64,000 nucleotides of DNA from Rhina ancylostomus (lineage: Eukaryota). This document shows positions 216 through 64,000 of the stretch, piece after piece. The notes beneath the pieces are model-generated. The model did no database searches. It was not told the origin of the DNA and worked only from the letters and a program-made list of their open reading frames with translations. The stretch's first letter is position 1; every line of letters starts with the position of its first letter. Position numbers and translations under genes: made by a program. The DNA is taken from positions 22,106,962-22,170,961 of the forward strand of contig JARFYF010000054.1 of assembly GCA_030265395.1 (NCBI GenBank). The letters are read 5' to 3'.

Positions 216-999
216 ACACATAACTCCACTGCCTTAACACCAATGTCCTCAGAATGCATTCCCAATCTTGCCAACACCTATCCAAGCTCTCCAAATGCCA
301 ATCCTAACTAAATCCATGATGAATCCCTCCCACTAATCCCTAAACATTCCCTTCCACTATCATGTCTCTCCCCTGCAAACCCTCTCCCCACCAGCAAGCT
401 GACTCTCCCTACCACAATCAGCTGCTCAGTTAACCTCCTCCACTATTTCCGCCCTTCACAGTAGCAGGAACTTCACAGAGGGATGGGTGATGTGCAAGAT
501 TCCTTACGTTAGGCCAGCTCCATCCTTGGACCCCTCCCTCCCCACCCCTCTGTAAATATCAGTCTGGGGATCTCACACAAAGCTGACTCAGTTTCAAAAC
601 AGCAGAGCTTTAATGCATGATACATGCCTGCCTGGAATTTCAAGTGCCCAACACTGTTTTATTCAGCACTGTGATAAAAATCAACTTTTTCCATAGAGAA
701 ATTCAACAACAACCATTCCTAGGCTGTAGTAAGTCACTGTGCAGATTTGATCATGATGTGAGACACTCTTGCACCTCTGATAAGACTTTTGTATTAGTTC
801 ACATGGACACTCCTGTGCAATGTACTTTTGGGAACATTACGGGGGAAATTGGAAAGATTTGTCCCAGAAGTGACCATCATTGGGTCCTCCAGAGACAGCT
901 TTTTGTAAATTTGTTTTCAGGCTCTGGGCATTGCTGACCAGACCAGCAGTAATGCTCATCCATGAGAAGCTGTTCATCATCCAGGAAATAAATCACCTC

Positions 1000-1180
1000 T
1001 CCTACATTGTTGCTGCTTCTAAATGTGAGAATTCCTTATCTAACTGCACCAGAATAACTTCACCAGGAAAACTGTACAAGTTCTAGTAGGTGGTTTACCA
1101 CCACCTTCTCAAAGGCAATTAGGGATGGGTAATAAATGCTGGATTTGGGAGCAGTGCGCAGATCAGGAAAGTGAATCTAA
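1000..1180 (+). mobile_element. 3' tail of a CR1-clade LINE ('family B' here)
   Basis: ccaccaccttctcaaaggcaattagggatgggtaataaatgctgg; the same tail occurs at 13675-13745 and 57030-57120. Confidence 0.7.
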
Positions 1181-1184
1181 AAAC

Positions 1185-1855
1185 AATGACCGGCAACGTG
1201 CTTCCATGTCAGGATGGTGTGCAACTTGGAGAGAAGGCCGCTGATGGTAGTGCTCCCTTGCACATACTGCCCTTGTCTTTCTTGCTACTTGAGATTGCAG
1301 GCTTGGGAGGTGCTGTCAGAGTAGCCTGGGTGATAACTGCTGTGCATAATATAGATGGTACACACTGCTTCCAAGGTGCATCAGTGCTGGAGGGAATGAC
1401 CATTTAGAACGGTTGATGAAGTGGCAATCTGCTCTGTTCTGGATGATGTCAAGCTTCTTGAACGTTGTTGCAGCTGGACAGATCCAGGCAAGTGGAGAGT
1501 ATTCCATCAGGATCCTGATTTGTACCCTGCAGATGGTGAGGTCAAGCTGTCTTTGTGCCTTGGGATGTCAGGAGGCAAATCACTCACCACAGGATACGCA
1601 GGCTCTTGTAACCATGATACATATGTGGCTATTCTAATGGGCTTCTGGTCTACAGTGACCCCAGTTTATTGATGGTGAAGGATTTGATGTGGTTTTGCCA
1701 TTGAATGTCAAGAATAGATGGTTACACTCTCTTGTTGGAGATGGTTATTTCTTGGGACTTCTGTAGCATGAACATTAGTTGTCATTTATCAGTCCACACT
1801 AGAGCATTGTCTAGGTCTTGCTGCATCTCTGCATGGGCTGCTTCTTTTGCTGAGA
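1185..1855 (-). mobile_element. Decayed family B LINE ORF2 C-terminal region
   Basis: Minus-strand translation MEYSPLAWICPAATTFKKLDIIQNRA; homologous to the + strand copy at 56550-57125. Confidence 0.8.
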
Positions 1856-2329
1856 AACCTGGTTTTCTCAGACCAGCCCAGGCAGTGAAGTCAATACAAA
1901 CTTTCTTTAATCCTTGGGCCCTGACACCAACCTATCATTAACCCATCCACCACCCTGATCACCATTCCTCCAACTACACTCTGCAGTTCCCTGAATCCCA
2001 ACCCTCCAATGACCAGCCATATCACTGGCCCAATAGAACATATGGTCAATGGCCATTCTGAATCCAACCTCCAAATGAAGTACTGACACCATATTTCCAA
2101 TGCTGAGAATGTCCAACACCCAGTTCTCTGGGCTGGAGGCTGAGGTTTCTATCAGGCTAGGGCTCTGGTAGTGATATGCACTCACAGACCAAAATTGTTT
2201 CCTCATTGGTCTGCCCATCTTGTGTACCAGAATTTCCAGGCAGTTATAATTTCTAGGTTACCATGTTAATTCAATTTTGACAATGCTTGCAATGATCAAA
2301 CATGTCAGAAATAACTATTTTGCCTTGAG

Positions 2330-2690
2330 TGGCAGCCCCTCCTTCTCAGACTGAAACTGTTGAGTTCAAGTTTCATTCAAGAGGTCAAAGCACAAATTCT
2401 AATATGACCTTCTGGTATTGCCCCTTGGATATGATACTGAGATTCTACCTGCCTTTGCTCCGATGATACTATTTGAGTGGAGGGTTTTTCAAAGTCCTAG
2501 AGTAAAATCAGTGTTGATTTCTAACTCTAAGACAGGTTAATGGTCATGGTCACCTTGCTGTGCTTGTGTTGGTTCCCATGTTTCTTACACAACAATGGTG
2601 AATACACTTTAAAAATGCCACATTTCACTCAATCACTGTGGTACGTCCAGTGTGGTGAACACTAATATATAGTTGCAAGCCTTTCAATAC
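2330..2690 (+). mobile_element. Very decayed Deu-domain (SacSINE1-like) SINE
   Basis: tRNA-like head (gttgagttcaagt) and tail (tttcttacacaacaatggtgaatacactt...atatatagttgcaagc), shared with several other copies in the window. Confidence 0.5.
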
Positions 2691-4229
2691 TTGCTGCACA
2701 TGCTGTGTGTTCATATCTTGAAGAGCTGTGTGTACAATGTGGTATGGCTTTGGATGCATTGTTACATCAACCATTGCTGTTAGTTAGCTATTAATAAAGG
2801 ATATTTAGTTGGAAGCTCAGCCCTATTCACTTGCCTTACTGATCAGCAATATGGAGAAGGACCCTTGAATGACACAGCACTGGTTAGTGAAAATAATATA
2901 CTCATATACTTCTCATATTTTTTTACATTATAGGAGGAAGCCATTTGTGCATCAAGTCTATGCAACTCTCAGAAAATGCCCATTAGTCCCATTCCCCGAC
3001 ATTTAATGATTTGGGGCAGTTATCACAAAGGAACGGATATCGAACCAGAACGTGCTAGAAACTCTTGGGCAGAGCAGACCACCTCTGCAGAGAGACAAAA
3101 CAGAATTAATGTGTATGGTTGAAAATCTTTCACCGAACGTCAGTTCAGACACATGTCTTTAATAGAGGCAGATTGGGAAAGAAATGCTGCTCTCCACCCG
3201 GGAATGAATTAAGAAAATACACAATGGTGATAAAGCCATCTTAGAAACAAGAAAATAATCAATATTTACTGAAAGCTAACTTTCTTAGTACATCTGTATA
3301 CCTTACCTTATATTGCATGCATGAGCAGACAACTGATGTTACCAGAGGTTCCCCAGTTACTCTGATGTGATTCATAGGTCAGCAGTACAAAACATCTTGA
3401 TAAAGTTGCTCAATACAAAAACACAGGTATGACCTCCCATTTACCCCACAACCTCCGAAAGGATTGCACCATTATCCTACCAGATATTATTAAACCCTGC
3501 GAGACAGAGCTGAAATCCTGTAGGATTCTTCAATCTGGCTCAAAGGATCAGATTTTGATTTGATTCAGAAACATCTGAAGAGAATTCTCATTTCAAAAAA
3601 TAACATTCCTGCAGGTCACGTTGCCAAGAAGTTTGCAGTGGGCTGATGCTAAATTAAGTGAACAGCCCTGGGGCAATTTGAAGCACATTGAAGTTTATTT
3701 GCTTTGTTAAAGTGTGCTTTGGATTTCCAGGAATTGTTATGAATTTGATTCATACTACAGACCCAAGGCTAAGGATCTCCTCCTATTGATATAATTACCT
3801 TGAATTTTACTTCAAGAGTGCATGCACAACTGGTTGTGTGTTTGGCAGCACGAAGGGAAAATAGTGCCCAACACGTAGAAGACAATGTACATGTTTGTGC
3901 ATAATCAAAATATGCTGGAATTTCTCACATAATGAAAGGAGGCCTCTGGCGGGGAGTAGGAAGTGGCGTTTTACTTCTTGCTTAAGGCTGAGGAAACATT
4001 TATAAATTGAAAATTGAGAAACTGCCTATACTGGAAGTCTGAAACCACATTTATAATTTCAATTTTTTGTCTGGACTTTGTGGACTTTTCAAAGAGGGAG
4101 ATATATCCATTGAACTGGCATTGAGGGCAGAATGTGATGAAATGGCCCATTGTTTGAGCTGGGTGACCACATTCACAGGGAGAGGAGAGTTTGATTCATC
4201 ATTTATGTTATTTCTTTGACAATAATAAA

Positions 4230-4605
4230 TTAGAACATAAGAACAGTACAGCACAGGAACAGGCACTTCGGCCCATGATGTTGTGCCGAACTAATTAAGC
4301 TTTATTAAGCTAAATTGTTCCCATTGGCAAAGGAATCTAAATCTGGGGGATGTGGAATGAAGATGATTGACAAAAAAAACAAGGAAAATTTTTTCATGCC
4401 ACAAATGGGTAGATTCTGAAATGCACGAACAGATGTGCGAATTCAATTGTGGCATTCAAAAGAAAGCTGAGTGAGCATCTGAAAAAAAGAATTTGCAGGT
4501 TTACTGCAGAGTGTGGGGGAATGGGACTCTCTGGATTGCTTTTACAAAGAGTTGGTCAGCAGATGATGGGCCAAATGCCCTCTTCCCATTATGTAACAAT
4601 TCTGA
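4230..4605. mobile_element. CR1 3' tail (minus, 4230-4300) adjoining a decayed CR1 3' end (plus, ~4310-4605)
   Basis: agaacataagaacagtacagcacaggaacaggcacttcggccc is the reverse CR1 terminus. The downstream part has the AFKRKL ORF2 end and a gatgggccaaatgccctc tail. Confidence 0.7.
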
Positions 4606-5039
4606 ATCCTTATGTACTAAATGGCCACATCACCCACAATCTATTTGGATTTTGTTTGTCACTCCTCATGTTCTTAGAGGCTGCTGAAACCCAGGGGGCC
4701 TTGCTGTTGGGTCTTGAATGAGTTCCTCGTCTCAGACAATGTTTTCAGTGCAGGCTTTGTCCATTTGTTGTTGCTGTTGTAGGTGAGGAGTAGCAGGACT
4801 AGAAAGGGTTCCATGAAAACATGCGGTGAGTTGAGGAGTCAGAGATAGACCAGTGCAGGTTATTGATGGTTTTGGCAACGTCTTGACAGATATGAAGAGG
4901 GGTGATAGTCAACAGCACTGGGATCCATTGGGATGACTTTATTGTTCTGGAGAGTGCCTGTATAGTTCAGCCTTATAGGAAATGGTAGTGGATTGATAGT
5001 CACCAAATATTGGTCCTACGTATAATGGATTCATCTCTA

Positions 5040-5560
5040 ACCCTAGCATATATTGATATATGGTTCCATAGGAGTTACAGAAGAGATTTACTCAAATAGC
5101 TTTAGGGCTAAGGGACCTCAGCTATGGGGTTAGGCTGCAGAAGCTGGAGTTACTTTTGTTGGTGGATATAAGTTTGAGCAGTGATGTAATGGATGTATTT
5201 AATGGAGGTGTAGAAAATCATGATTAGTTTAGATATGGCAAACAGAAAGAATATGTCCAATGGGCAGATGGTTCAAGAATCTGGGGGCACAAACTCAAAT
5301 TGAGGGGTGAAAGCAGGACATGAGGAGAAACCTTTCAACACATATTGTGTTTATGGTCAGAAACTCACTGCATATGAGGGCGAGTCAATCAGTCAAACAG
5401 GGCTTTCGGAAGAAAAATGGATGAGTTTGAGAGGAAATAATTAGCAGGGCTTTGGAAAAAGTTCAAGGGAATGTTACTGAATAGATTGTTCCACAAGATG
5501 CTGACATGCATATAATGAACTGAGTGGCCTCCTTTTTGTTGTTACAATTCTGTGATTCTT
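5040..5560 (+). mobile_element. Decayed CR1 LINE 3' end
   Basis: gagatttact...gggacctcagctatgggg..aggctgcagaagctggag...ggggcacaaactcaaattgaggggtga...gaactgagtggcctcctttt; typical CR1 ORF2 end and 3' UTR. Confidence 0.65.
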
Positions 5561-7161
5561 GCATTGTATAGTTTAAAGCATTTACTGAATAGTTATCAGA
5601 CAAGGGAGCTCTCGATTCTATGCTGGGAAATCTGCCTAAAGTCTGTCAAGAGATTCATGTCAATTTGAAGCTCAAGAAGTCATGCTTATAACATGCTTGT
5701 ATATTTCTATTGTACAGTCTGACGTGATAAAATGGCTTTGCTCCCTTTACATTTGGTTTAAATAGCACAATGCTAATTGCCTTGGTAACACAACAGGAGA
5801 ACCTCAACAGCATTGGTGAAAGAGAGATTTGGTGCCCAGAAGTAGCCTGCACAATTATTCCCCGTTACTCTTCCAACATAAATGCTGGCATCAGGAAGTC
5901 ACCACCTCTGGACAGAAGGGAGTAGGAACATCAGATTGCATCTGTGTTTCAGGGGCCTCTGAGTCCATCTATTGGCCCCTGACCAATTCAAAGGTAAGAC
6001 ACAAGGTAAAAGCGGTTCTCAATTCCACATGGAAAGGATTTTTTTTTGTTGCCAAAAGTGATGGGAAAATCCATATTACAACAATCATCCTCCTGCCCTG
6101 GTCAAGATAATAGCGTGAACAGCCTTCCTTCTGTGGTTTCTCTGCAGTGTCACATGCAATTTTTATGATTGGTGCATTAGTAGCTTTCAAGAAAAAGTCA
6201 AATCCACTGTGTTTTTCCTTCCTTTCATTGAAGTGTGTTCAGTTTTGTCACAGTATTTACTGATGACTATAAAGGCACACTGGTATTGTCTGTACATATA
6301 TCAAATAGCTCGTAATTTGGAGAACAAGATAGCTTAAATGATGATCCCTGAGCTTTGGTTTGTTCAACATACATCAGATCTGCTATTGGTCTGGAGCATT
6401 TCTCTTCATTTCATTGGACAAGAGCTTTGCAAAATTTTCAGCAGGATGATACGGAAGTACAGTCTGCTTCTGGAAATGGATGTTGTTCTGGAATGGAATT
6501 GGATTGCGACCATTTCTGAGTTAAATCACATCACCCTGGAAATTCAATTGGGTACTTCCATTTCAATTCATATTTATGTACAGCTTATGCATCAGTTGCG
6601 CATGGGATGACATTGTACACCAGAGAATAATCTTGTTGGAGGATTGCAGAAAAATTAGGCAAAGTTGTCTGATGAGCAACCATTGAGTGGCAATCCTGGA
6701 ACAACTGGGACTTCACAATGCAGTGCTGGATTAGGACTTCATCAATACAAGTCCCATACTTTAATCCTTCAGTTCCCACATATCCATGGTACCAACCTAC
6801 TGATCACTCTCCCGAACCCTTAACCTTGATTCTGATCACCTCCCCCCACCCCTTCACTTTTCCTATATGCAATTGATTGCTTCTCTCCCTAATCTTCATC
6901 TTGCCTTCAGCAACCCTTCCCCTCAGTCCAGGCATCAATCTCACCCATGGAAAGTGATGTTTAACCTCTTATGTAGCCACTTAACCGATCATCAACCCAA
7001 CCCCAGGTTACGAAGTCAGCCCTCTCTCCCTCTTGATCTCACAAACCTAATCTCGGTCCTGAGAGCACATTTCTGACCATAAAAATGTGTAACACAAGTT
7101 TAGATTGGCAAGCCCACAATCCAAAGAGTCATTGGCAGCTGTCACTACAAATATAGAACAT

Positions 7162-7483
7162 AGAAGAGAGGCACAAGAGACTGCAGATGCTGTAATCTGG
7201 AGAAGCAAACAATCTGCTGGAAAACCTCAGCGGGTCATAGACCAAAACATAGAACATAGAACAGTACAGCACAGAACCGGCCCATTGGCCCACATTGTTG
7301 TGCCAACATAGCTAATCCCTCCTACCTACAGAATGCCCATATCCCTCCAACAGGGTTGAACAGCATCTGTGTGAGGAAAGAAAATGTTGGCGTTTCGGGT
7401 TGAAATCCTGCATTAGGACTGTTTTCTTTCCTCCCACAGATGCTGCTCGACCTCCTGAGTTCCTTCAGCAGAATGTTTCTTGC
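7162..7483. mobile_element. Penelope-derived fold-back element with a nested CR1 tail (7237-7348, minus)
   Basis: cacaagagactgcagatgctg...ctcagcgggtc / cagcatctgtg...cgtttcgggttga...ggactg followed by the inverted copy ...cacagatgctgctcgacctcctgagttcc. Flanked by the direct repeat tatagaacat (7152-7161, 7484-7493). Confidence 0.75.
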
Positions 7484-9919
7484 TATAGAACATTGTCAAG
7501 TATCTATTAAAACTATAAGGACGCTCTATCACATAGTTTTTCCTTTACTCCATGATTTTTTTGGTCAGTTAATGCTCTTTTATAGATATATTTGCTTTTC
7601 CATTTTTTATCATTAAAGTAATTTCACCACATATGCCAACTCTGGATAGGGAAACCAATAGGCAAATAGGCACTAAAACATTTGATAAGCTTGTTGGAAA
7701 CACACTGCAAAATAATGTGGCCAATGTAATATGCTCTCACCTCACCACTTGCAGGGAACTTGTAGACCATTGCAGGTCACTCTGTCACAACAACATATCA
7801 GATCCATTGTTTTACCACTATGCTTAAAAGAAAATTATTTTGCACTTGATTATATCATCATACAGTTGACCCTTGAAAACATTTGAACACTTCTGTGTTT
7901 TAACATCTCTGGTATCTTGTGAAAACTTGCAAAAGTTCAGAGATAGGTCACCCAGATTAGATGACCAGTGATGTTGTTCAATGATGCACATAGAACTGTG
8001 AGAAAAATAAACCTTTCAAAAGACATGCTGAAAGCTGTGCAGAAATCTATGGGATATATGCAATGAAGTCTTAAGGTCACAAAGTCCACCACTTGTGGGT
8101 AGATGGGTAGTAGATGGCTCAGTGGTGACAGTAACAGTGAAAAGAAGAGATGTGCAATATGAAAGCCAACCATCCCCATCTGCCAAGCTCTAAGTCTTGT
8201 GCTGACTCTTTATGAAAATCATCTTTCACTACGCCAATATTTAGGATGAGATAAATAGAGATTCATTTTTCTGTTTTGACTCCATCTTAATTTGTTCAGT
8301 CTGCAGAGAACTATTTCTGTCTTGGTTAGATTATTTTGGTGTTTAAAAGATAACGCTGTCATGTTCTTATTGTGCCAGTACCATAGTGTTACATCTGGCA
8401 AGGTGCTGATTCAATTGTGTCAGATATTAGTTCTTGCACCAAAATAAATGGTTGAATTTCCTTTAATAAAAAGCACAGATTAATGAGGAGCTATACAGCA
8501 GTGGAGACAGAAGCAGTTATTTTACCAAAATAATATCTTTTTTATTTTGCTGCTCTTCTTCCCTCTCACACTCGCTCCCAGAGCCGGGTAGTTAACCCAC
8601 TGTTAATCCTCTGACTTTGTACCACTTCAGCAGAATGTTCGGTATTGTTTTAAATTACTCACCTTCCCTTCAGGAAATTGGCAGCTGTAACCTGTCATCT
8701 GGTAAATGCAAATGACAGGACTGAATCCAGAAATGGAGCTCCACCCTATAACACATGTTACAAAGGTAGATTTTTGTGCATCTGCATGGCTGTAGAGAGG
8801 GCACCATTTCTTCAAACTGGAATATACATTTCCCAATGGGAACCTTAGACAATTTCCTTCCATTAATGAGCAGAATTTTAATTTGTAAACCAAAACAATC
8901 GCATCTGCAATCTGTAAATGTAGGTTTAAAATGCACCTGAGAACTCTAAACAAGAGCATGCAGACCAATAGTGAGGCAAGAACTATGAGATGGGCTGTTT
9001 GATAACACTTTTACAACCTGTTAAAATGGAAATGTGACACACACCTGTAACCAATTAATATACTTTATAATTCAGCATTATTTCTAATACCCCTGAACAA
9101 CAAATGCTTTATTCAAAATGCATCGAAATGAGATAGCATCAACTATAACAGTTATCATTCATTCAATTAATCGATTTATGGAGCATTAAGTACTTTTGAA
9201 TTGGTCTGTTAGTACAGAGGGGCTGGTCTGTAAAATCTGGACCCTAAAAGTGCTGGTGCCTAAAGGACAGAATGAAGGAGAAATGGCTCCACAGATAGGA
9301 AGACTGCTTCAGAATTTAAATAAAATCAAAGTGGACCTAATGGTAAAATGTCTGAGGATTCTGGCACCAAAACTAGCACCAAATCTATCTCCACTAAAAG
9401 GTTATTACAACCCATGNNNGCAGAGGTGTTTCTCATTTTTGTTGTTCTGTATTTGATAATGTCCAAATTCAAAAGTGTCACAAATAAAACTGTAAGGAAA
9501 TTCAGGAGCAAATTCCTTACTGAAAGGGACTACAGATTAATGGGTGACTGGGGAGATTAGCATGGTTGCATCCAAGAGGAAGCAAGACAAGCATGAGGGA
9601 TAAAGGAATATGTTGACAGCATTGGACGAAGAAGGGTTGCTTGATACTCCTTGGACAAATTGCTTACTTTTACTCTGCAATCTTTTAAGTCATAGAATTT
9701 TGCTCTGGTGGTTCAGATCTCAGTAGGTGCAGAGAGCCATTGAGTTAGTGTTGACCTCTGGTGACCTATGGGCCAGCTCTCTACAAGATGACCTATCATC
9801 AATGCTGCATCTAACCTTCAACAGGCTTCCTGCAGGAGTGGAGCTACAACACAGGACAAATTGGAAGTCTTCAAGCCATGTCACCTCCACTCCAGAACAA
9901 AGTCTCCTTATAACTCAAG

Positions 9920-21920: not shown

Positions 21921-22869
21921 GGTAATTTAAGCCCTTGGGCAGCATGAAATAACTAATGAAGCCAACAGAAAACTAGATTCTCAATAATAATGAAACATTT
22001 GGCACATTTCATTCCATAAGGATTTGCTGTGTGTGCTCACTTCCCTATATGGAATAGCAGTGTGTTAGCCTCTCTGTCTGAACATGCCTGGTATAATTTC
22101 AACTGTGCATGAACTTGCCAATGTTGATATTTAAAAACACTCTCTTGTGAAAATCTGCTAAAGTGTTGCAGTTGATGGTCTCTATTTGTGACCTTGCTGA
22201 GTGTGATTTCCTTAGCGTGTAAGTATTCTCTGTGTTATTGCCCCTCCCTGTAAATGTCATGATCAGGATTACCTCTATGTGGACTCATTGTGTCAGCGTG
22301 AGAACATGCCAATTTTAGTCATTTTTAAAGCACGGTATCTTGTATGAAATCCACTGAGTGGCTGAGTGTGATTGCTTCTGGGTAAAATGTTGCCGTGTGA
22401 TTGCTTGTGTGTGTGAACTTGATGAGCGCGATTGCTTTTCCGTCTGATATTCCTGAGATTGCCTCTTGGTGACATTACTGAATGCCATTACTCCTCCAAT
22501 GTGAACCTGCTGAGTGTGATTGCCTCTCCATCCAACATTGCTGAGAATGACTGCCTGTGTGTGCGAACTTGCTGGTTATATTTGTGTGTAGTCTTGCAGA
22601 GTGTGATTTCCTTTGAGAACTATCTGGGTTTGATTCCCTCTCCACGTGAACTTGTTTTGCCCGATTGTATGTCTGGGTGTGAATCCACTGAGTGTAGTTG
22701 TGGCTTTTTGCAAAGTTGCTGAGTAATGTTACCTTTGCTTGTGAACTTGCAGAAATCAAAACTTGTAGATGTGAGAAATCTGGATCAAAGACAGAAATAA
22801 TGAGATCAGGCAACATCCATTGACAGAACAGGAAAAATGAGGGGAGCAACTTTGACCTATATTATCCAA

Positions 22870-23085: not shown

Positions 23086-23150
23086 TATAACCAGGTCAGA
23101 GCCTCCCATAGCAATCAAACACATTGTGTGAACCTTTCCCTGCTTCTGCA

Positions 23151-23756
23151 GACATAAGAGACTGCAGATGCTGGAATCTGGAGCAAAAAAATGAGCTGCT
23201 GGAGGAACTCAGTGGGTTGGGCAGCAAAAGACCACAAAATATAGGAGCAGAATTAAGCCATTCGACCCATCGAGTCTGCTCTGGCACTCGATCACTGACA
23301 ATTGACNNNNNNNNNNNNNNNNNNNNNNNNNNNNNNNNNNNNNNNNNNNNNNNNNNNNNNNNNNNNNNNNNNNNNNNNNNNNNNNNNNNNNNNNNNNNNN
23401 NNNNNNGGGCAGCACAAGACCACAAAATATAGGAGCAGAATTAAGCCATTCGACCCATCGAGTCTGCTCTGGCACTCAATCACTGACAATTGACGTTTCA
23501 GGTTGAGAGCCTTCATGTGGACTGTCCATTTCCCTCCACAGATCCTGCTTGATCTGCTGACTTCCTCCAGCAGCTTGTTTTTTGCTCTTTTCTTACTTCC
23601 CTTTGTCTCCATTGTAATGTAAACTGTCCGGCTAGAGGGTCTCAACCCAAAACATTGACTGCCTATTTCCCTCATAGATGCTGCCTGACCCACTGAGTTC
23701 CTCCAGTGCTTTATGTGTTGCTCCAGATTCCAGCATCTGCAGTCTCTTGTGTCTTC
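23151..23756. mobile_element. Penelope-derived fold-back element (23151-23587, with nested CR1 tail) plus a second single copy (23624-23756)
   Basis: gagactgcagatgctggaatctggagc...gaggaactcag with an inverted partner. The second copy ends ...cagcatctgcagtctcttgtgtc and is flanked by aatgtaaa (23616-23623, 23757-23764). Confidence 0.8.
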
Positions 23757-24919
23757 AATGTAAAACTAGTGTTGTCAGCGGAGCGGCTGACCCAATGCTG
23801 ACACTTCCTCAGCGGAAATATGACCTCCAATGTCTCAGGTGTGGGCCCTTGATCAGAACACAATTATGATGAAGCCCACACTTGATAGGTTAACCAACAT
23901 TCTCTCCACTGTTTACTGCTTAACATGTTGAGTGTCTGCAGAGGTTTCTAAGTCTAATTGTGACTGTATGTGAATTAGCTTGTGCCATAGCCACTGTTGT
24001 TGGATTGCCTTTGCGAACCCGCAGTGTGTTCTACACATAAACTGGCTGAGTAGGATGTCCCTGCTTTGAAATTGCTGACTGTAACTGCCTTTCAATGTCT
24101 CTTTGGAAAGTATGACGCTGTGTTAATTTGCTGAGCTTCAGTACCTTGATTTCTTACCACAGCCTTTCTGTGTAGATGTGCTGAGTGCGATTGGGTCTGT
24201 GAGAGTTTGCTTAATATGACCACATTTGTGCATAAATTTGCTGAGTCATTTGCCTCTATTTGTGAAGCAGTTTCTCATGATTGCAAACTCTGTATATTTT
24301 TCTTTTGTTATATTGGTGTAGGATTGTGTCATCTAGTGAATTTACTGTGCAGTTGTATCTGCTCATGAAATAAACGAATGATGTGCACAAGCTGAGTGAC
24401 ACCTCATGAGGCAGTCTCCTGTGGTCAGTGGTGACTTGCTTTCATTCTGCATCTGTGGCTTCTGAGTTGGCACATGTGCCTGATGTGCAGACTCTGGCAG
24501 AAGCAGGGAAGGAGGTGCTCAAAGGGACAGGTGGTTGGGTTTTCTGGGAGGCTTTGCATTCCTTCCACCATTTCTGCTTGGAGCCTATGTGTGCCCATCA
24601 AAGAGACTTGACCTGCTCAGTGCTTCCCTGGATGCTCTTCCTCCATTTGAGTGGCCATAGGTCAGGGTTCTCATAAATCAATAAGGATGTTATGTTTCTT
24701 GAGGAAGTCTTTGAAAATGTACCTGAAGTGTTTTCTCAGTCTCTCTGGAGAGCACTTCATTGGACAGGGCTCCTCTTGTGATCAACTTGGCAAAAAAGGG
24801 TTCTTATTGTCATCTGCATTGGCTGCTGTTTTAAAAATGCAGTGGGTTAGTAAAAAACATAATTTGTCAAATTTTGGATTTCAATTGTATTTCAGGATTC
24901 TGCTGTCAGGAATCAATAC

Positions 24920-25256
24920 GCACAGCGGCACAGCAAGTATAGATGCTGCTGCATTGTTCCAGTAACCCAAATCCTGACCTCCAGTGCTGTCTGTCTGGAG
25001 CTTGCATGTTCTCTGTGACCACATGGCTTTCTTCTGGGTGCTTTGATTACCTCCCACATGGATGTGCAAGTGGAACATTAATTGGCCGCTTTAACTTACC
25101 CCTAGTGTGCAGGTGAGTGGTAGAATCTGGGTGAGTTGATGGCACCTGGGGAAAATAAAATGGGATTAGTGTGGGATTCTTGTAAAATAGATGCTTGATG
25201 GTTGGTGCAGGTTTGGTGGCTGAAAAGCTTTCTTCCACGCTGCATAACTTCATGAC
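24920..25256 (+). mobile_element. HE1-like V-SINE, near full length
   Basis: gcggcacagc...tgctgtctgtctggagcttgcatgttctc...ctcccac...cccctagtgtgcaggtgagtggtagaatctgg... ending in a CR1-like tail (gctgcataacttcatgac). Confidence 0.85.
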
Positions 25257-25760: not shown

Positions 25761-26287
25761 TGCAAATAATCAAGTCCATGCTTTATTTTTAGCTTCTTTG
25801 TTTTTTAAATGAAATTGTCACATGTCTGGGAGCTCCTGAGGTGATTGTACTGAGCACCTGCCACTGTAGTCAATTAGCAGTTCAAGTCATTTTCACATGA
25901 TTGATTTTTAAGATATTTGGCATGTATCTCTAATGTATTTTACTGTACATTTAGTGAAATAAGAAAGGCACTTTCTTTACCTTGCTAATCTGGGTAAATA
26001 AAATATTCAAATCTTTGTACAATTCTTTCATTTGTTACCAGGATATTTGCATGGTCTCATAAAATATATACAACGATTGGAACAGAATGGATTCATTAAT
26101 GATCTGCCACTGCGGCACTGATTACACCTTTTGTTCTGTATGTATTACTGGACAGAGAGTGCTGGCCTCCAATCTAGCTCAAACTGAAGTTATCAAAATT
26201 CTGTTGGTTAGAATGATACCAAGGGTGATGAGATTATGTTACCCCATCCAATTCACTGTTGAAATATGGATGCATAGCACAGAATTA

Positions 26288-26580
26288 TTCTGACAAAGAA
26301 TCCCAGACCAGAAATATTAACTGGAGACACAAGTGACTGCAGATGCTGGAATCTTGAGCAAAAAACAATCTACTGGAGGAACTCAGCAGGTCGAACAGCA
26401 TCTGTTGGGGGGAAAGGAATTGTCAATGTTTCGGGAACCTTTCCCCCCCCCACAAGTGTTCTCGACCCACTGAGTTCCTCCTGCAGATTGCTTCTTCCTC
26501 CTGAAGCATTAACTGTTTCTCTTTCCACATATGCTGTCCGGTGAGCCGAGTGTTTCCAGCATTTTTTGTTTTTCTTGCCT
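26288..26580. mobile_element. Penelope-derived fold-back element (26324-26499) nested in an older related terminal repeat
   Basis: Inner element gacacaagtgactgcagatgctgg...gtttcggg with its inverted partner; imperfect 16-bp duplication ccagaaatattaactg (26308-26323) / cctgaagcattaactg (26500-26515). Confidence 0.75.
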
Positions 26581-43330: not shown

Positions 43331-45780
43331 AGTCTGTTGGTTGTTTGGATGATAATGTGTGATGCCAGGTTTATTGCTTTTTTTGTTGTTGTTTCCCAAT
43401 GTAGGGGATGATGTGTGGGTTGGTGCCTGGTGTAGATTGGGGTGGTTGGTTTCCATGTGTAGAGAGTGATTTTTGTGGGCTGGTGCTGTGTTGGGAGTGA
43501 TTCATTGGCTGATCCTAGGTATGATTTCTGTGTACATGATGCTGGAAGAAGACAGTGATGTTTGAAGGTTCAGGGTGCAACTGTGCACTTGCTGCATTTT
43601 GTTGGGTGTGGCTTTAATGCTGTGGCTAGAGATTGTATTAACACAAAATATCAATGTGTGCAAGTAATTTTATGTGCTGGCTGTAGGAGTGTTTTGTNNN
43701 NNNNNNNNNNNNNNNNNNNNNNNNNNNNNNNNNNNNNNNNNNNNNNNNNNNNNNNNNNNNNNNNNNNNNNNNNNNNNNNNNNNNNNNNNNNNNNNNNCTG
43801 TAGGAGTGTTTTGTTTTCTATACTGGTGCAAGATATATATGACATGGTTGTGTTCTGTTTCGGGTTGTGGGTTGTTTGTGTGGTACTGGATGAAGGAGGT
43901 GATTTTTTTTTTTGTGTGTTGTTGCCAGGTACAAGGGTTGATTTGTCTTGAAGCCAGGTGTCGTTCCTGCTATTTTTGTGGTGCTGCCAGTGTTGGGATG
44001 ATTTAATGAGTTGGTGCCTGATCCAGGCTGTGATTGTGTCCACTGGGGCAGTGTGTATTTACAACTGTGTGTCAGTGTTGTGTGTGATACTTGTCTGGGG
44101 CTGCATTTAGGGACTGGGTTTTTGTGTGTGATGTTGATTGCGGTGTTCCTCGTGTGGTACTGAGAGTAGGAGGTGATTTTGCGTTTAATGCAAGGCATAT
44201 AGAATAACTTTATCTGATAGTGCAAAGGGGTGTGTGTTTTGGTGAGGGCTGGATTGTACGTGTTAGTGTAGGGTGTAAAGGGTGATGGTGTGTTGATGCC
44301 TGGTAGATTGGAGTGGTTGGGTTCCATGTGTCAAGAGTGATTTTGAGTTGGTGCTGTGTAGGGAGTGATTCATTTGCTGAATGCAGGGGATGATTGTGCC
44401 CTTATTTAGGGTGTAAGGTTGATTTTGTATATGGGAGCTGTGGATAAACTTGTTATGATGCCATATTTAGCATGTGATTTTAGTCATGTTGATGTTGGGT
44501 GTATGGACTGATTTTTGTGTATTATGTGATATAGATTTAAGGGCTGATGCTGGTTCTGGAGATGACTCTTTCAGAGTGGTTTTGTGCATTGGTGCCAAGC
44601 ATAGAGGTTGTTTGGATGTGTTCATAACAGGAGGCAGGACGTAGTGGGATGTATTGGTGCCATGTGTATTGGGTGCTTTTGTGGTAGTGCCTGGGGTGTG
44701 ACTGGCTCTATCGGTGCAGTATAGGGGACATTGTGTGCTTTAGTGCCAGGAGCACTACCTGATTGTGTGTGCAATGCAGATAAAGGAGTAGGCTTTGAGC
44801 TTTGTTTCTGGGGTTGAATGTGTGCATTGGTACCAGATATCTGGATGATTGTGTTTTGGTGAAGCCTCTCAGGTTGTTTGTGTTGGAGGTCTGTAAGGAG
44901 TGATTTATTGTCTCATTCCAATGAGGTTATCTACAGATTTGGATAGTCAAGGCTTGGAATCCCCGTTTAGAGTGGTGGCTGGTGCTTGGTTGGTTAAACA
45001 ATGCTTGATTGCAGGGACAGTGAAAGTCCAGCACTCCTGGTACTTACTGGGGCCAGACTGGCAGATTTTCTCAATTTGTTGAATATTATTCCTATTAATA
45101 TCTCAAAGCACTTTGAATTAACTTTTNNNNNNNNNNNNNNNNNNNNTAGAATAAACTTTCCAGTGATCCTGATTATAGTGGGTGATTTTATTTGTTGAAC
45201 CTGGCAACAACATACACAATCACCTCCTTCACCCAGTACCCCACACAACCACCCAACAACCTGACACAAAACAAACGTCATTTATATCCTGCACCAAAAA
45301 ATAAAATTGCTCCCTAGCACCAACACAAACACATAAAATTATCCATACCCATCGTATTAATACAAAATATCAACCGCTATCCACAGCATCAACACACAAA
45401 ATCTCACCCAGCGCGCACACAGAAGTCACACCTGGCATCAACTAATGAATCACGAATGGCATGACGTTAGGGTGAACTTGTGCAATGCAGGCATAATTTT
45501 GTGTTGACGCTGTGTGTTAGATGTGATTGTGTCTGTGATGTGGGTGTAAGGATGCTTTTTATATGTTGGTGGCAGGTGTTGGTGACTTTTCTGTGTGTAG
45601 GCATGACTTGGTGTTGGTGCTGGGTGTAGGGAGTGATATTATGTGGTGTAAAGTGTGGGAAGTGATTACATCTACTTGTGCTGGATCTGAGGGTGATATG
45701 TGAGTTACTGGGTATAGGGTGTGATTTTTTTTTTGTTCTTGTATGCCATTTGTTGTAGAAGATGATGTTGCATGGATTCA
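43330..45780 (+). repeat. Decayed G/T-rich ~30-bp tandem array with higher-order duplication and an inverted block
   Basis: Recurring tgtgtgttggtgccaggtgtaggggtgatttt-like units; 43420-43510 recurs at ~44295-44380; 45198-45453 is reverse-oriented. Confidence 0.75.
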
Positions 45781-51787: not shown

Positions 51788-52240
51788 ATAGAGTCATAGA
51801 GGAATACGGCACTGAAATGGGCCCTTCAGCCCACCAGGGTTGTGCTGACCATCAGCCACTTATTTACAGCAGGCACGGTAGTGTAGCGGTTCGCGTAACA
51901 CTTTACAGTGCCAGTGACCTGGATTCAATTCTGGCCACTGTCTGTAAGGAGTTTGTACGTTCTTCCCTGTGTCTGTGTTGGTTTCCTCTGGGCGCTCCGG
52001 TTTCCTCCCACATTCCGAAAACCTACAGGTTAGGAAGTTGTGGGCATGCTATGTTGGCGCCAGAAGCGTGGTGACACTTGTGGGCTACCCCCAGAACACT
52101 ACGCAAAAGATGCATTTCACTGTGTATTTAAATGTACATGTGACTAAAAGATATTTTGTCTTACTGTTTCTACATTCATTCCCATTCACCCAACATTCAA
52201 TCAACTCTCTCCAGGTTCTATCACTCACCTACACACTAGT
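51788..52240 (-). mobile_element. HE1-like V-SINE 3' half, split by a younger SINE
   Basis: tagagtcatagag..tacggcactgaaatgggcccttcagcccacc...atttaca | insertion | ...cattcaatcaactc..ttctatcactcacctacacactag; collinear with the reverse of 25100-25256. Confidence 0.75.
51869..52162 (+). mobile_element. Relatively young V-SINE with a different 3' tail
   Basis: A-box-like tagtgtagcgg, B-box-like ggattcaattc, V-domain gcgctccggtttcctcccacattcc, tail gcatttcactgtgt...gtacatgtgacta. Many CpGs retained. Confidence 0.88.
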
Positions 52241-60685: not shown

Positions 60686-61020
60686 AGCACAATGGTCCGC
60701 CAGATAGCACCACTGCCTCACAGGTCCTGAGCTTGGGTGCTTACTGTGTGGGGGTTTATACATCCTCTCAGTGACTGTGTGGATTTCCCCCGGGTGACTT
60801 GGTTATCTCCCACATGCCAAAGATGTGTGAGTCAGTTGGCTAATTGTCCACTGTCAGTGGTGCCGATGTAAATCAGTGGCAGGAAAGCTTTTGGTGGGGG
60901 AGGGACATGTTGATGGAGATGCAAGAGGAGGGATGGGGTTGGTGTAGATGGGCATTTGATGTCTGGTGTGGATGTGGTGGACTGAAGCACCTGTTATGGT
61001 GCTGTTTGAATGTTTGACTA
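60686..61020 (+). mobile_element. Decayed HE1-like V-SINE
   Basis: gcaccactgcctcacag...gtgactgtgtggatttcccccgggtg...ctcccacatgccaaagatgtg...gtggactgaagcacctg. Confidence 0.75.
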
Positions 61021-61077
61021 TCACAAAAAGGCAAAATGTTGTCAATGCTGGAAAAATGAAACAAAATATGAGATTAA

Positions 61078-61237
61078 ATGGATAGGGACATTTAAGAGAC
61101 TCTTGGATAGACACATGAATGATAAAGAAATGGGGGGGCTATGTGGGAGGGAAGGTTTAGATAGATCTTAGAGCAGGATAAAATGTCAGCACAACATTGT
61201 GGGCTGAAGGGCCTGTACTGTGCTGTAATGTTCTATG
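61078..61237 (+). mobile_element. Young CR1 3' end (near-identical copy at 63356-63515)
   Basis: gatagggacatttaagagact...gggctgaagggcctgtactgtgctgtaatgttctatg. Confidence 0.88.
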
Positions 61238-61749
61238 AATTTAATTTCCTTTTCATAGTGAGAGTTGAAGTAATACCTAGTCCAGAGGAGAGCCCAAGAA
61301 CTTTGTGACGGATCTGTGGAATGCAGAGGGTGTAGAGAGCTCTGGAATCTTTCCAGGACCAGTGAGATTCTGGAAATCTGAGAACCCTGGATGTCCAGTT
61401 TAACGATAGTCTTTTTGTACTCATCAGTTTCATGAACTGGAGGGGAGTGTATCATCTGTTCAAGCAGACATCTCTGGAGAGAGAAGCAAAGATAATGCTT
61501 CAGGTCAATGACTTTTCACCTAAAAGAGGATGTAGAAGGCCTTGTGATTAAAAATATGAAGAGCTCTCAATTTGTTTTACCCATTCATAGTTGATTTCCT
61601 TATTTATAAGACTACTATTTTGCATTAATATTATAAAACAATTGGTTAACACTACAAGCAAGACCAGTTGTCTCCTTACTGATAAAAGTTGGTTGAGGGG
61701 TGCTATTGTCATATTGCTTACATGTGCACAGATACCCAAACTATATCCT

Positions 61750-62902: not shown

Positions 62903-64000
62903 AGATAAAACACTGCAGATTCTGGAAATCTGAAATAAAAACAGAAAATGCTGGAGCACTCAGCAAGTCAGGTGAATTTTGTGGAAAGAGGAACAGAGTT
63001 AACGTTTTAGGTCAAAGGCCCCATGTCCAAGCTGGATAAGAGAAAACAAGTTAGTTTTAAGCTGCAGAGGGGTGTGGGAGGGATGGAGAGGACAAAGGGG
63101 TGGTGTGGACTCAGGGTTGCCCTGAGGATAAGTTGTGGATGAAATCATATTGTTGACAGGAAAGTTAGAGAGAGTGGCATGTAGCGACTAGCTACACTGA
63201 ATAAAGACACGGGACACTTGTTTGGAGTCCAAGAGTCGAATGAACGACTGGGGTGNNNNNNNNNNNNNNNNNNNNNNNNNNNNNNNNNNNNNNNNNNNNN
63301 NNNNNNNNNNNNNNNNNNNNNNNNNNNNNNNNNNNNNNNNNNNNNNNNNNNNNNNAACGGATAGGGACATTTAAGAGACTTTTGGATAGACACATGAATG
63401 ATACAGAAATGGGGGGCTATGTGGGAGGGAAGGGTTAGATGGATCTTAGAGCAGGATAAAATGTTGGCACAACATCATGGGCTGAAGGGCCTGTACTGTG
63501 CTGTAATGTTCTATGAACACCCAGGGAAACTGAGGAGGAAAGGAAGGAACGAAAAGTAAGGTCTTAGGTGAGGAGGAAGAGAGAAGCCTTTGAATGATGC
63601 AAATCCTACATCAATCCCTTTTCGTTAATTCTCCTCGTATTCTTATTATCTTCCCCTGGATTCTATACTCACTGCGCACTAGGGGCAATTTACTGTTATC
63701 AATCAACCTACCAACCAGCACACCAGCATGTGGGAGCAAACTGGAGCACCTGGAGGAAACAGGGAGAATGTGCAAACTCCAGTGTCTCTGGCGCTGTGAG
63801 ACAGTGGCTCTACCAGCTGTGCCACTGTGCTACTGAATTCATTCAACTCATTTTTTAAATCCAGAGGGATGTTCAATGCCCAGTCAGAAGATGAGTTGCT
63901 GTTCTTCTGGCTTGCATTGAGTTTCTTAGGAAGGAGGTTGAGAACAGAGGTCAGAGTAGGAGTGGGATAGAGAATTAAAATGACCAGAGGGATTGGTAGT
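62903..64000 (-). mobile_element. Decayed Penelope-like element end, interrupted by a CR1 tail (63356-63515, +) and an HE1-like SINE (63601-63831, -)
   Basis: Terminal repeat ctgcagattctggaaatctgaaataaaaacagaaaatgctgg...gagttaacgttt; tgcccagtcagaagatgagttgctgttcttc...cagaggtcagag resembles the reverse GIY-YIG end; the SINE shows gcactaggggcaatttac...gggagaatgtgcaaactcc...gctgtgccactgtgc. Confidence 0.65.

Follow-up and report, generated by a model that had tools for sequence, protein, structure and literature searches.

Minimal type I hammerhead ribozymes, which lack helix III, are a known feature of metazoan Penelope-like elements and have been reported in the Xena, Poseidon and Neptune elements of fishes (Cervera and de la Pena 2014, PMC4209133). 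As described there, they carry a palindrome at positions 15.1-16.1, an extra base between positions 9 and 10.1 and a G10.1-C11.1 pair, and their activity is low. They reside in the terminal repeat of the element and occur mostly as dispersed single motifs left by truncated elements, besides opposite-strand pairs. The EN+ Penelope-like elements Neptune and Nematis are described as combining a reverse transcriptase (RT), a CX2-5CxxC linker and GIY-YIG with heavy 5' truncation, an inverted 5'-truncated partner, a hammerhead in the repeat and an optional tail of 30-40 nt (Craig et al. 2021, PMC8557442). For the Poseidon element PAc of Anolis carolinensis, two preferred 3' ends bounding a tail have been described, with the hammerhead about 100-130 nt upstream of these ends and no pile-up at the cleavage site (Frangieh et al. 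2024, PMC11167929). According to the same source, reverse transcription of PAc begins at two internal positions of the RNA that delimit the tail, its hammerhead cleaves only with protein, and mutants with a dead hammerhead still insert. The low-copy element Pen2a of Adineta vaga has an inverted repeat at its 5' end, solo repeats, a 31-nt tail, target-site duplications of 8-9 bp and, within the repeat, a TATA box followed by an initiator-like motif (Arkhipova et al. 2013, PMC3846280). Non-LTR retrozymes, which are also Penelope-derived and carry type I hammerheads, consist of tandem units, each with a hammerhead, and are present in the single cartilaginous fish sampled in that work (bioRxiv 10.64898/2026.07.22.740005).

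Here we followed up an earlier note on a 64,000-nt stretch of the genome of Rhina ancylostomus (contig JARFYF010000054.1, positions 22,106,962 to 22,170,961; hereafter the window), in which four 38-nt blocks had been proposed to derive from such a ribozyme. All four blocks, at 7384-7421, 23487-23524, 23624-23661 and 26286-26323, are present with exactly the letters quoted in the note. The common orientation it gave them applies only after reverse-complementing; as laid down, two blocks lie on each strand. In ungapped alignment, the first three blocks matched an intact copy elsewhere in the genome (L027:1489-1526) at 29, 31 and 29 of 38 positions, respectively. Markov-1 resampling of the window (50 times) gave 0.04 matches at 24 or more positions and none at 26 or more, and these three blocks are far beyond chance. 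Block 26286-26323 agreed with the same copy at 18 of 38 positions, which is within chance level; on a model of the oldest subfamily it scored 10.2 bits, the best of 500 null stretches reaching 4.3. It is more decayed than the three blocks that align without gaps. The observation that no copy keeps an intact core held up, as 3 (7384), 2 (23487) and 5 (23624) catalytic positions are changed, and the window copies are likely inert. Pfam searches of six longer frames of the window gave nothing over the cut-off, and a host gene was not identified.

To avoid circularity, we based a blind model solely on the 105 nt that follow the motif and ran it on a blind sample of 100 unselected 10-kb regions (867,313 non-N bases). 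This tail-only model gave 150 matches, whereas the reversed control gave 0. Of the matches, 137 had a usable upstream stretch, and these stretches aligned into a helix I arm, CUGAUGA, an extra A, helix II, GAAA, C, GUY and a helix I arm. As had been proposed, the consensus of the family has the form of a minimal type I hammerhead, with CUGANGA, GAAA, NUH and stem I pairing all present in the plurality consensus of the blind sample. Helix I comprises 5 bp and helix II 4-5 bp (as against 7-8 bp in the schistosome families of PMC4209133), with G10.1-C11.1, an extra A after position 9, an ACGU palindrome at 15.1-16.1 and no helix III loop; apart from the length of helix II, this is the layout of the minimal hammerheads described above. 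The reading of att/aac variants as CpG decay was borne out by C/T-G/A splits at four CpG sites in the blind sample. Undoing this decay yields the sequence of L027:1489-1526, of which 45 exact 38-nt copies occur genome-wide (control, 0). A model of motif plus tail found 208 segments in the same blind sample. Extrapolated very roughly, and for large scaffolds only, this amounts to about 3-5 x 10^5 segments in the 2.2-Gb genome, far above the 4,000-9,000 motifs given for coelacanth and Xenopus (PMC4209133), with counting methods that differ. Among 120 blind copies spanning the core, the core boxes are preserved in 11, of which 7 also retain most of both stems.

Covariance models, which the note had suggested as a check, returned no Rfam hammerhead family at E<=10 for either the window or an intact copy. 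As Rfam misses even the intact copy, its blank result in the window is uninformative about decay; the Rfam hammerhead models likely expect helix III. In ViennaRNA, the monomer was predicted to adopt a non-hammerhead fold (-12.4, compared to -10.2 for the hammerhead) and the dimer a non-hammerhead duplex (-34.9), the complete double hammerhead lying outside the scoring. Predicted folding does not favour the active form in monomer or dimer, which is in keeping with the low activity of minimal hammerheads. Small Penelope hammerheads reportedly cleave as dimers, as Lunse et al. are said to have described in 2017.

Hierarchical clustering of the tails gave one cluster; subfamilies were defined by seeded tail-only profiles, which assigned 112 of 120 copies to five groups. 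Position 4 is A in 15 of 33 copies of subfamily A, while in subfamily D position 9 is C in 16 of 21 copies and helix I has only three pairs. In subfamily E, the first pair of helix I is U-A instead of C-G, a compensatory change (20/14/2/50) that was inherited from one event. The U4A and A9C subfamilies depart from the canonical core boxes. A hand count of the first 100 listed of 714 CpG-intact copies comprised 39 canonical, 22 U4A, 24 A9C, 5 double and 10 other cores. Two window copies sit in lineages whose core was already altered, namely 23487 (U4A) and 7384 (A9C). The joint reconstruction of a ribozyme from the four blocks thus mixed subfamilies and is a chimera (7384 belongs to D, 23487 to U4A), although it landed near the family consensus by chance. 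U4A or A9C variants may be covered in Lunse et al. 2017. Large lineages of these two kinds, as seen here, were not found in the accessible parts of PMC4209133. Most changes to the hammerhead core are described as sharply lowering activity, with U4C tolerated in a viroid (PMC3088659).

The exact copies are preceded by a pyrimidine-rich stretch of 265-520 nt and, before that, by the end of a GIY-YIG frame; one such frame, about 500 nt upstream of an exact copy, scored 27 bits, over the Pfam cut-off. Three loci (L203, L210 and L211) have remnants of RT and GIY-YIG, the UTR and the hammerhead in colinear order on the same strand, and a C-x4-C-xx-C linker is present in L203 and L223. The RT fragment of L203 reached 15.1 bits, below the Pfam cut-off of 29.6 bits, and was identified through a tblastn match (E 1e-12) with another of the genome's Penelope ORFs. 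The order of the element is RT, zinc-finger linker, GIY-YIG, pyrimidine-rich UTR, hammerhead and a tail of about 95 nt. With RT and GIY-YIG upstream of the same motif, the suggested origin from a Penelope-like terminal repeat stands. By this layout, the family is of the Neptune/Nematis type; like these elements, it shows 5' truncation, an inverted partner, an optional tail and short target-site duplications (8 and 10 bp in the window). None of the fetched loci contained a full-length copy with its upstream repeat, and the longest copies end in inversions or other insertions within the RT. Most of the long open frames that the GIY-YIG search turned up were runs of N. The one complete ORF, in locus L086, belongs to another Penelope family and has no match to this repeat. 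At 406-3809 (minus strand), this locus holds another, apparently intact Penelope-like element with a 774-aa RT and GIY-YIG frame, which is overlapped by a 362-aa frame with a weak GDSL/SGNH-like match. At 31 ORF ends (e.g. L224, L230), the stop codon lies inside a conserved, splice-donor-like G-T-A-A that heads the pyrimidine-rich UTR.

A head-to-head partner within 700 nt was found for 89 of the 208 segments and a same-strand neighbour for 14, while 105 had neither; the distance of 700 nt is loose and lets in some chance neighbours, and the 14 same-strand neighbours are about what density alone gives. The view of these copies as retrozyme-like non-coding elements could not be maintained: head-to-head partners far outnumber same-strand neighbours, and longer copies continue into the coding element, running into GIY-YIG and RT, whereas retrozymes have no coding sequence. 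The few same-strand neighbours among the 208 blind segments give no sign of the tandem runs of two or more complete hammerheads that mark a retrozyme, although rare arrays may exist elsewhere in the genome; in contrast to the tandem units of non-LTR retrozymes, the present family occurs solo or head-to-head. Solo repeats and an inverted repeat at the 5' end are shared with Pen2a, and dispersed single motifs and opposite-strand pairs with the minimal hammerheads of other metazoan elements. The 3' ends of 90 copies cluster at 131-133 (29/90) and at 96-100 (18/90). These clusters, about 35 nt apart, are the optional tail of Penelope insertions, and both they and their distance from the hammerhead resemble PAc. 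Of 26 full-tail copies, 24 have a tail that reads open from an ATG, compared to 3 and 6 in the other frames. This ATG lies 16 nt 3' of the hammerhead and, as the subfamilies differ in frame near the tail end, is only a candidate ORF start. PAc differs in belonging to the Penelope/Poseidon clade and in an ORF that starts at stem II.

Within the window, the block at 7384-7421 is part of fold-back unit 1 (7162-7483), a pair of arms within a 10-bp target-site duplication (7152-7161, plus strand, its letters recurring at 7484-7493, plus strand). The left arm comprises a distal tail (7165-7237, minus strand) and, separated from it by a nested retroposon end (~7238-7353), the hammerhead with the start of the tail (7354-7421, minus strand; subfamily D). 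In this hammerhead A9C is inherited, while G5A and U16.1C are private. The right arm (7417-7483, plus strand) begins at the helix I 3' arm and lacks the last ~35 nt of the tail; five junction bases are common to both arms. The nested piece matches 61183-61237 and 63461-63515. Unit 2 (23146-23587), a second fold-back pair, consists of a distal tail (23146-23226, minus strand), a nested element with an assembly gap (23227-23484), the decayed hammerhead (23487-23524, minus strand), which has U4A as in the large U4A lineage and a private G5C, and a right arm (23520-23587, plus strand) joined via five common bases of helix I. A search for a target-site duplication of unit 2 found none. The same 88 nt (98% identical) at 23219-23306 and 23407-23494 flank a 100-N gap within unit 2, likely an assembly duplication of the nested short element.

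Separate from unit 2, a solo copy occupies 23624-23756 (plus strand), with the decayed hammerhead at 23624-23661 and a full tail of ~95 nt at 23662-23756 that is open from an ATG at 23678. Its 8-bp target-site duplication (23616-23623, plus strand, with the letters recurring at 23757-23764, plus strand) abuts the first helix I base. The fourth block, 26286-26323 (plus strand), is the hammerhead of an old subfamily-E copy that is broken at its 3' end and has no tail of its own directly after it. Into this copy the younger fold-back unit 3 (26324-26499, both strands) is inserted, and the remainder, a duplicated core end plus tail, follows at 26500-26572 (plus strand; 34.3 bits). The left arm of unit 3 (26324-26443, minus strand) includes a partial core at ~26419-26443, its right arm spans 26446-26499 (plus strand), and a 13/16 direct repeat (26308-26323 and 26500-26515) flanks the unit. 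That partial core was absent from the earlier note, as were two additional old copies on the minus strand: an E-like one at 61452-61520 and one of subfamily E at 62914-63033 with a full-length decayed hammerhead and tail. A weak extra match to the family model at 23870-23956 (E 2.7e-4) is possibly a very old copy.

The window also contains repeats of other kinds. Another dispersed family, the 3' end of a short retroposon with a short tandem tail, occurs at 7255-7309 (nested in unit 1), 4231-4287, 61183-61237 and 63461-63515, and a further dispersed family, which we take to be SINE-like, at 62-159, 24970-25060, 51959-52019 and 60761-60816. Several diverged 26-nt units spaced ~87 nt apart at 22187-22639 form a decayed local tandem. 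The region 43335-45734 is G/T-rich, with multiple internal direct repeats and the inverted pairs 43877-43915/45207-45245 and 43497-43533/45417-45453. About 160 nt are repeated 2.28 kb apart, at 61077-61239 and 63356-63517, with 94-95% identity.

The UTR is missing from the 20 nt immediately ahead of helix I in 45 of 86 young copies, compared to stop fractions of 0-0.30 in the later 20-nt bins; in the blind sample, 35 of 96 copies keep the pyrimidine-rich upstream sequence and 49 do not. Just 4 of 208 segments start at model positions 34-38, directly after the cleavage site. About half of the copies end at the front edge of the ribozyme and not at the cleavage site, where PAc likewise shows no pile-up. 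A matching boundary appears in contigs from four other organisms, where the A of this helix I arm ranked with the best-supported loose ends in all four runs (judged on the best 24 of 612). A TATA-like box lies ~27 nt ahead of the front edge, which itself sits on an initiator-like motif, an arrangement also described in the repeat of Pen2a; in the accessible parts of PMC3846280, no link between start site and hammerhead is drawn. Of 61 copies that bear the UTR, 21 have TATA at -36..-22, compared to 0-3 in five other intervals, and the initiator pattern is found on the helix I arm in 49 of 61, counts that derive from about five related lineages and not from 61 independent events. Judged from these sequence features, the transcription start is probably the A in the 5' arm of helix I or a base close to it. 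Counting against a clean start site, the starts spread across arm positions 1-6 rather than falling on one base. A cap-derived extra G before the start was not significant (14 of 30 copies, compared to 9.2). The sequence upstream of helix I also resembles a splice acceptor.

Our findings suggest that the blocks are very likely decayed, 5'-truncated ends of a high-copy Penelope-like retrotransposon, which likely arose by copying of uncleaved RNA toward a probable start at helix I. RT would be primed in the tail and would copy uncleaved RNA back toward the likely start at the front edge of the ribozyme. On an assumed two-repeat transcript, priming in the downstream repeat would give UTR-bearing, randomly truncated copies, and priming in the upstream repeat would give run-off cDNA stubs of ~100-135 nt. 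Head-to-head pairs may result from priming from both nicked strands or from template switching between short stretches in common. Cleavage by the ancestral motif would be weak, occurring in a dimer or with the help of a protein. By analogy to the in vitro work on anole Penelope, cleavage is likely not needed for copying. More tentatively, and with slightly less than an even chance of being right, the whole pattern could mean that the ribozyme sits at the transcript start, that the stubs are run-off cDNAs of uncleaved RNA and that the U4A and A9C lineages amplified with altered cores. The stubs would then number tens of thousands, with U4A and A9C making up roughly half of the 100 CpG-intact copies that head the list.

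The solo units of ~135 nt might also be an independent non-autonomous short element, transcribed by itself through host read-through or a neighbouring promoter and remobilised in trans like a SINE or a monomeric retrozyme. Such an element is improbable, even though 33 of 90 young copies lack the UTR and lie outside tight head-to-head pairs, some of these stubs (~7 of 33) having target-site duplications, which may abut helix I as at 23616-23623 in the window, and rotifer terminal repeats alone are described as able to mobilise in trans (PMC3846280). A stub has no upstream TATA-like box. Moreover, the diagnostic tails of each subfamily are common to stubs and to UTR- or ORF-bearing copies, no tandem arrays are evident in the blind sample (a same-strand neighbour lies within 700 nt in 14 of 208 segments), and the stub flanks are all different. 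That one or more of the window copies are retained by the host as functional ribozymes has next to no probability. Catalytic non-CpG positions are kept at 0.90 in the blind sample, compared to 0.86 in the tail, but such an excess can arise from aligning on the core. Every window copy carries 2-5 core changes, the same-strand copies lie 2.6 kb and 16 kb apart, and the 7 of 120 blind copies that keep core and stems do so on a lenient test.

The pile-up of 5' ends could be explained differently if the pyrimidine tract and CAG immediately ahead of the helix I arm were a splice acceptor, either ending an intron or binding splicing factors that block RT. This reading is unlikely, despite a G-T-A-A motif that overlaps the ORF stop 265-520 nt upstream, a Penelope intron of D. 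virilis described as ending at helix I (PMC4209133), and base frequencies at arm positions 1-3 of the stubs that also fit exon ends. A strict branch-point pattern was found in 0 of 61 copies, compared to 37 of 61 for a loose pattern. None of 31 ORF ends runs straight into the hammerhead, nor did we see a spliced copy; GT..AG was likewise not found among the best 15 of 111 joints in contigs of three runs presumed to be RNA. In addition, target-site duplications abut position 1 in the solo copy of the window and in L300, leaving no room for an exon. Copying of uncleaved RNA toward a start at helix I remains the preferred reading.

The motif is real and was correctly recognised, and the element is an ordinary one of a kind already described. 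In the literature searched, we found no description of this family in cartilaginous fish, although supplements may list it, and none of a start site on helix I. As hammerhead-bearing Penelope ends have already been described in fish genomes and the window copies are likely dead, the locus itself is of limited importance. The in vivo role of the Penelope hammerhead is still open (PMC7761336), and hundreds of thousands of copies with differing cores and a fixed 5' boundary offer substrates for questions of both cleavage and start site. Should the U4A and A9C lineages indeed have been amplified with altered cores from transcripts starting at the ribozyme, this would amount to evidence on the scale of a genome that Penelope elements can do without cleavage when transposing in vivo, or else U4A and A9C would be tolerated variants.
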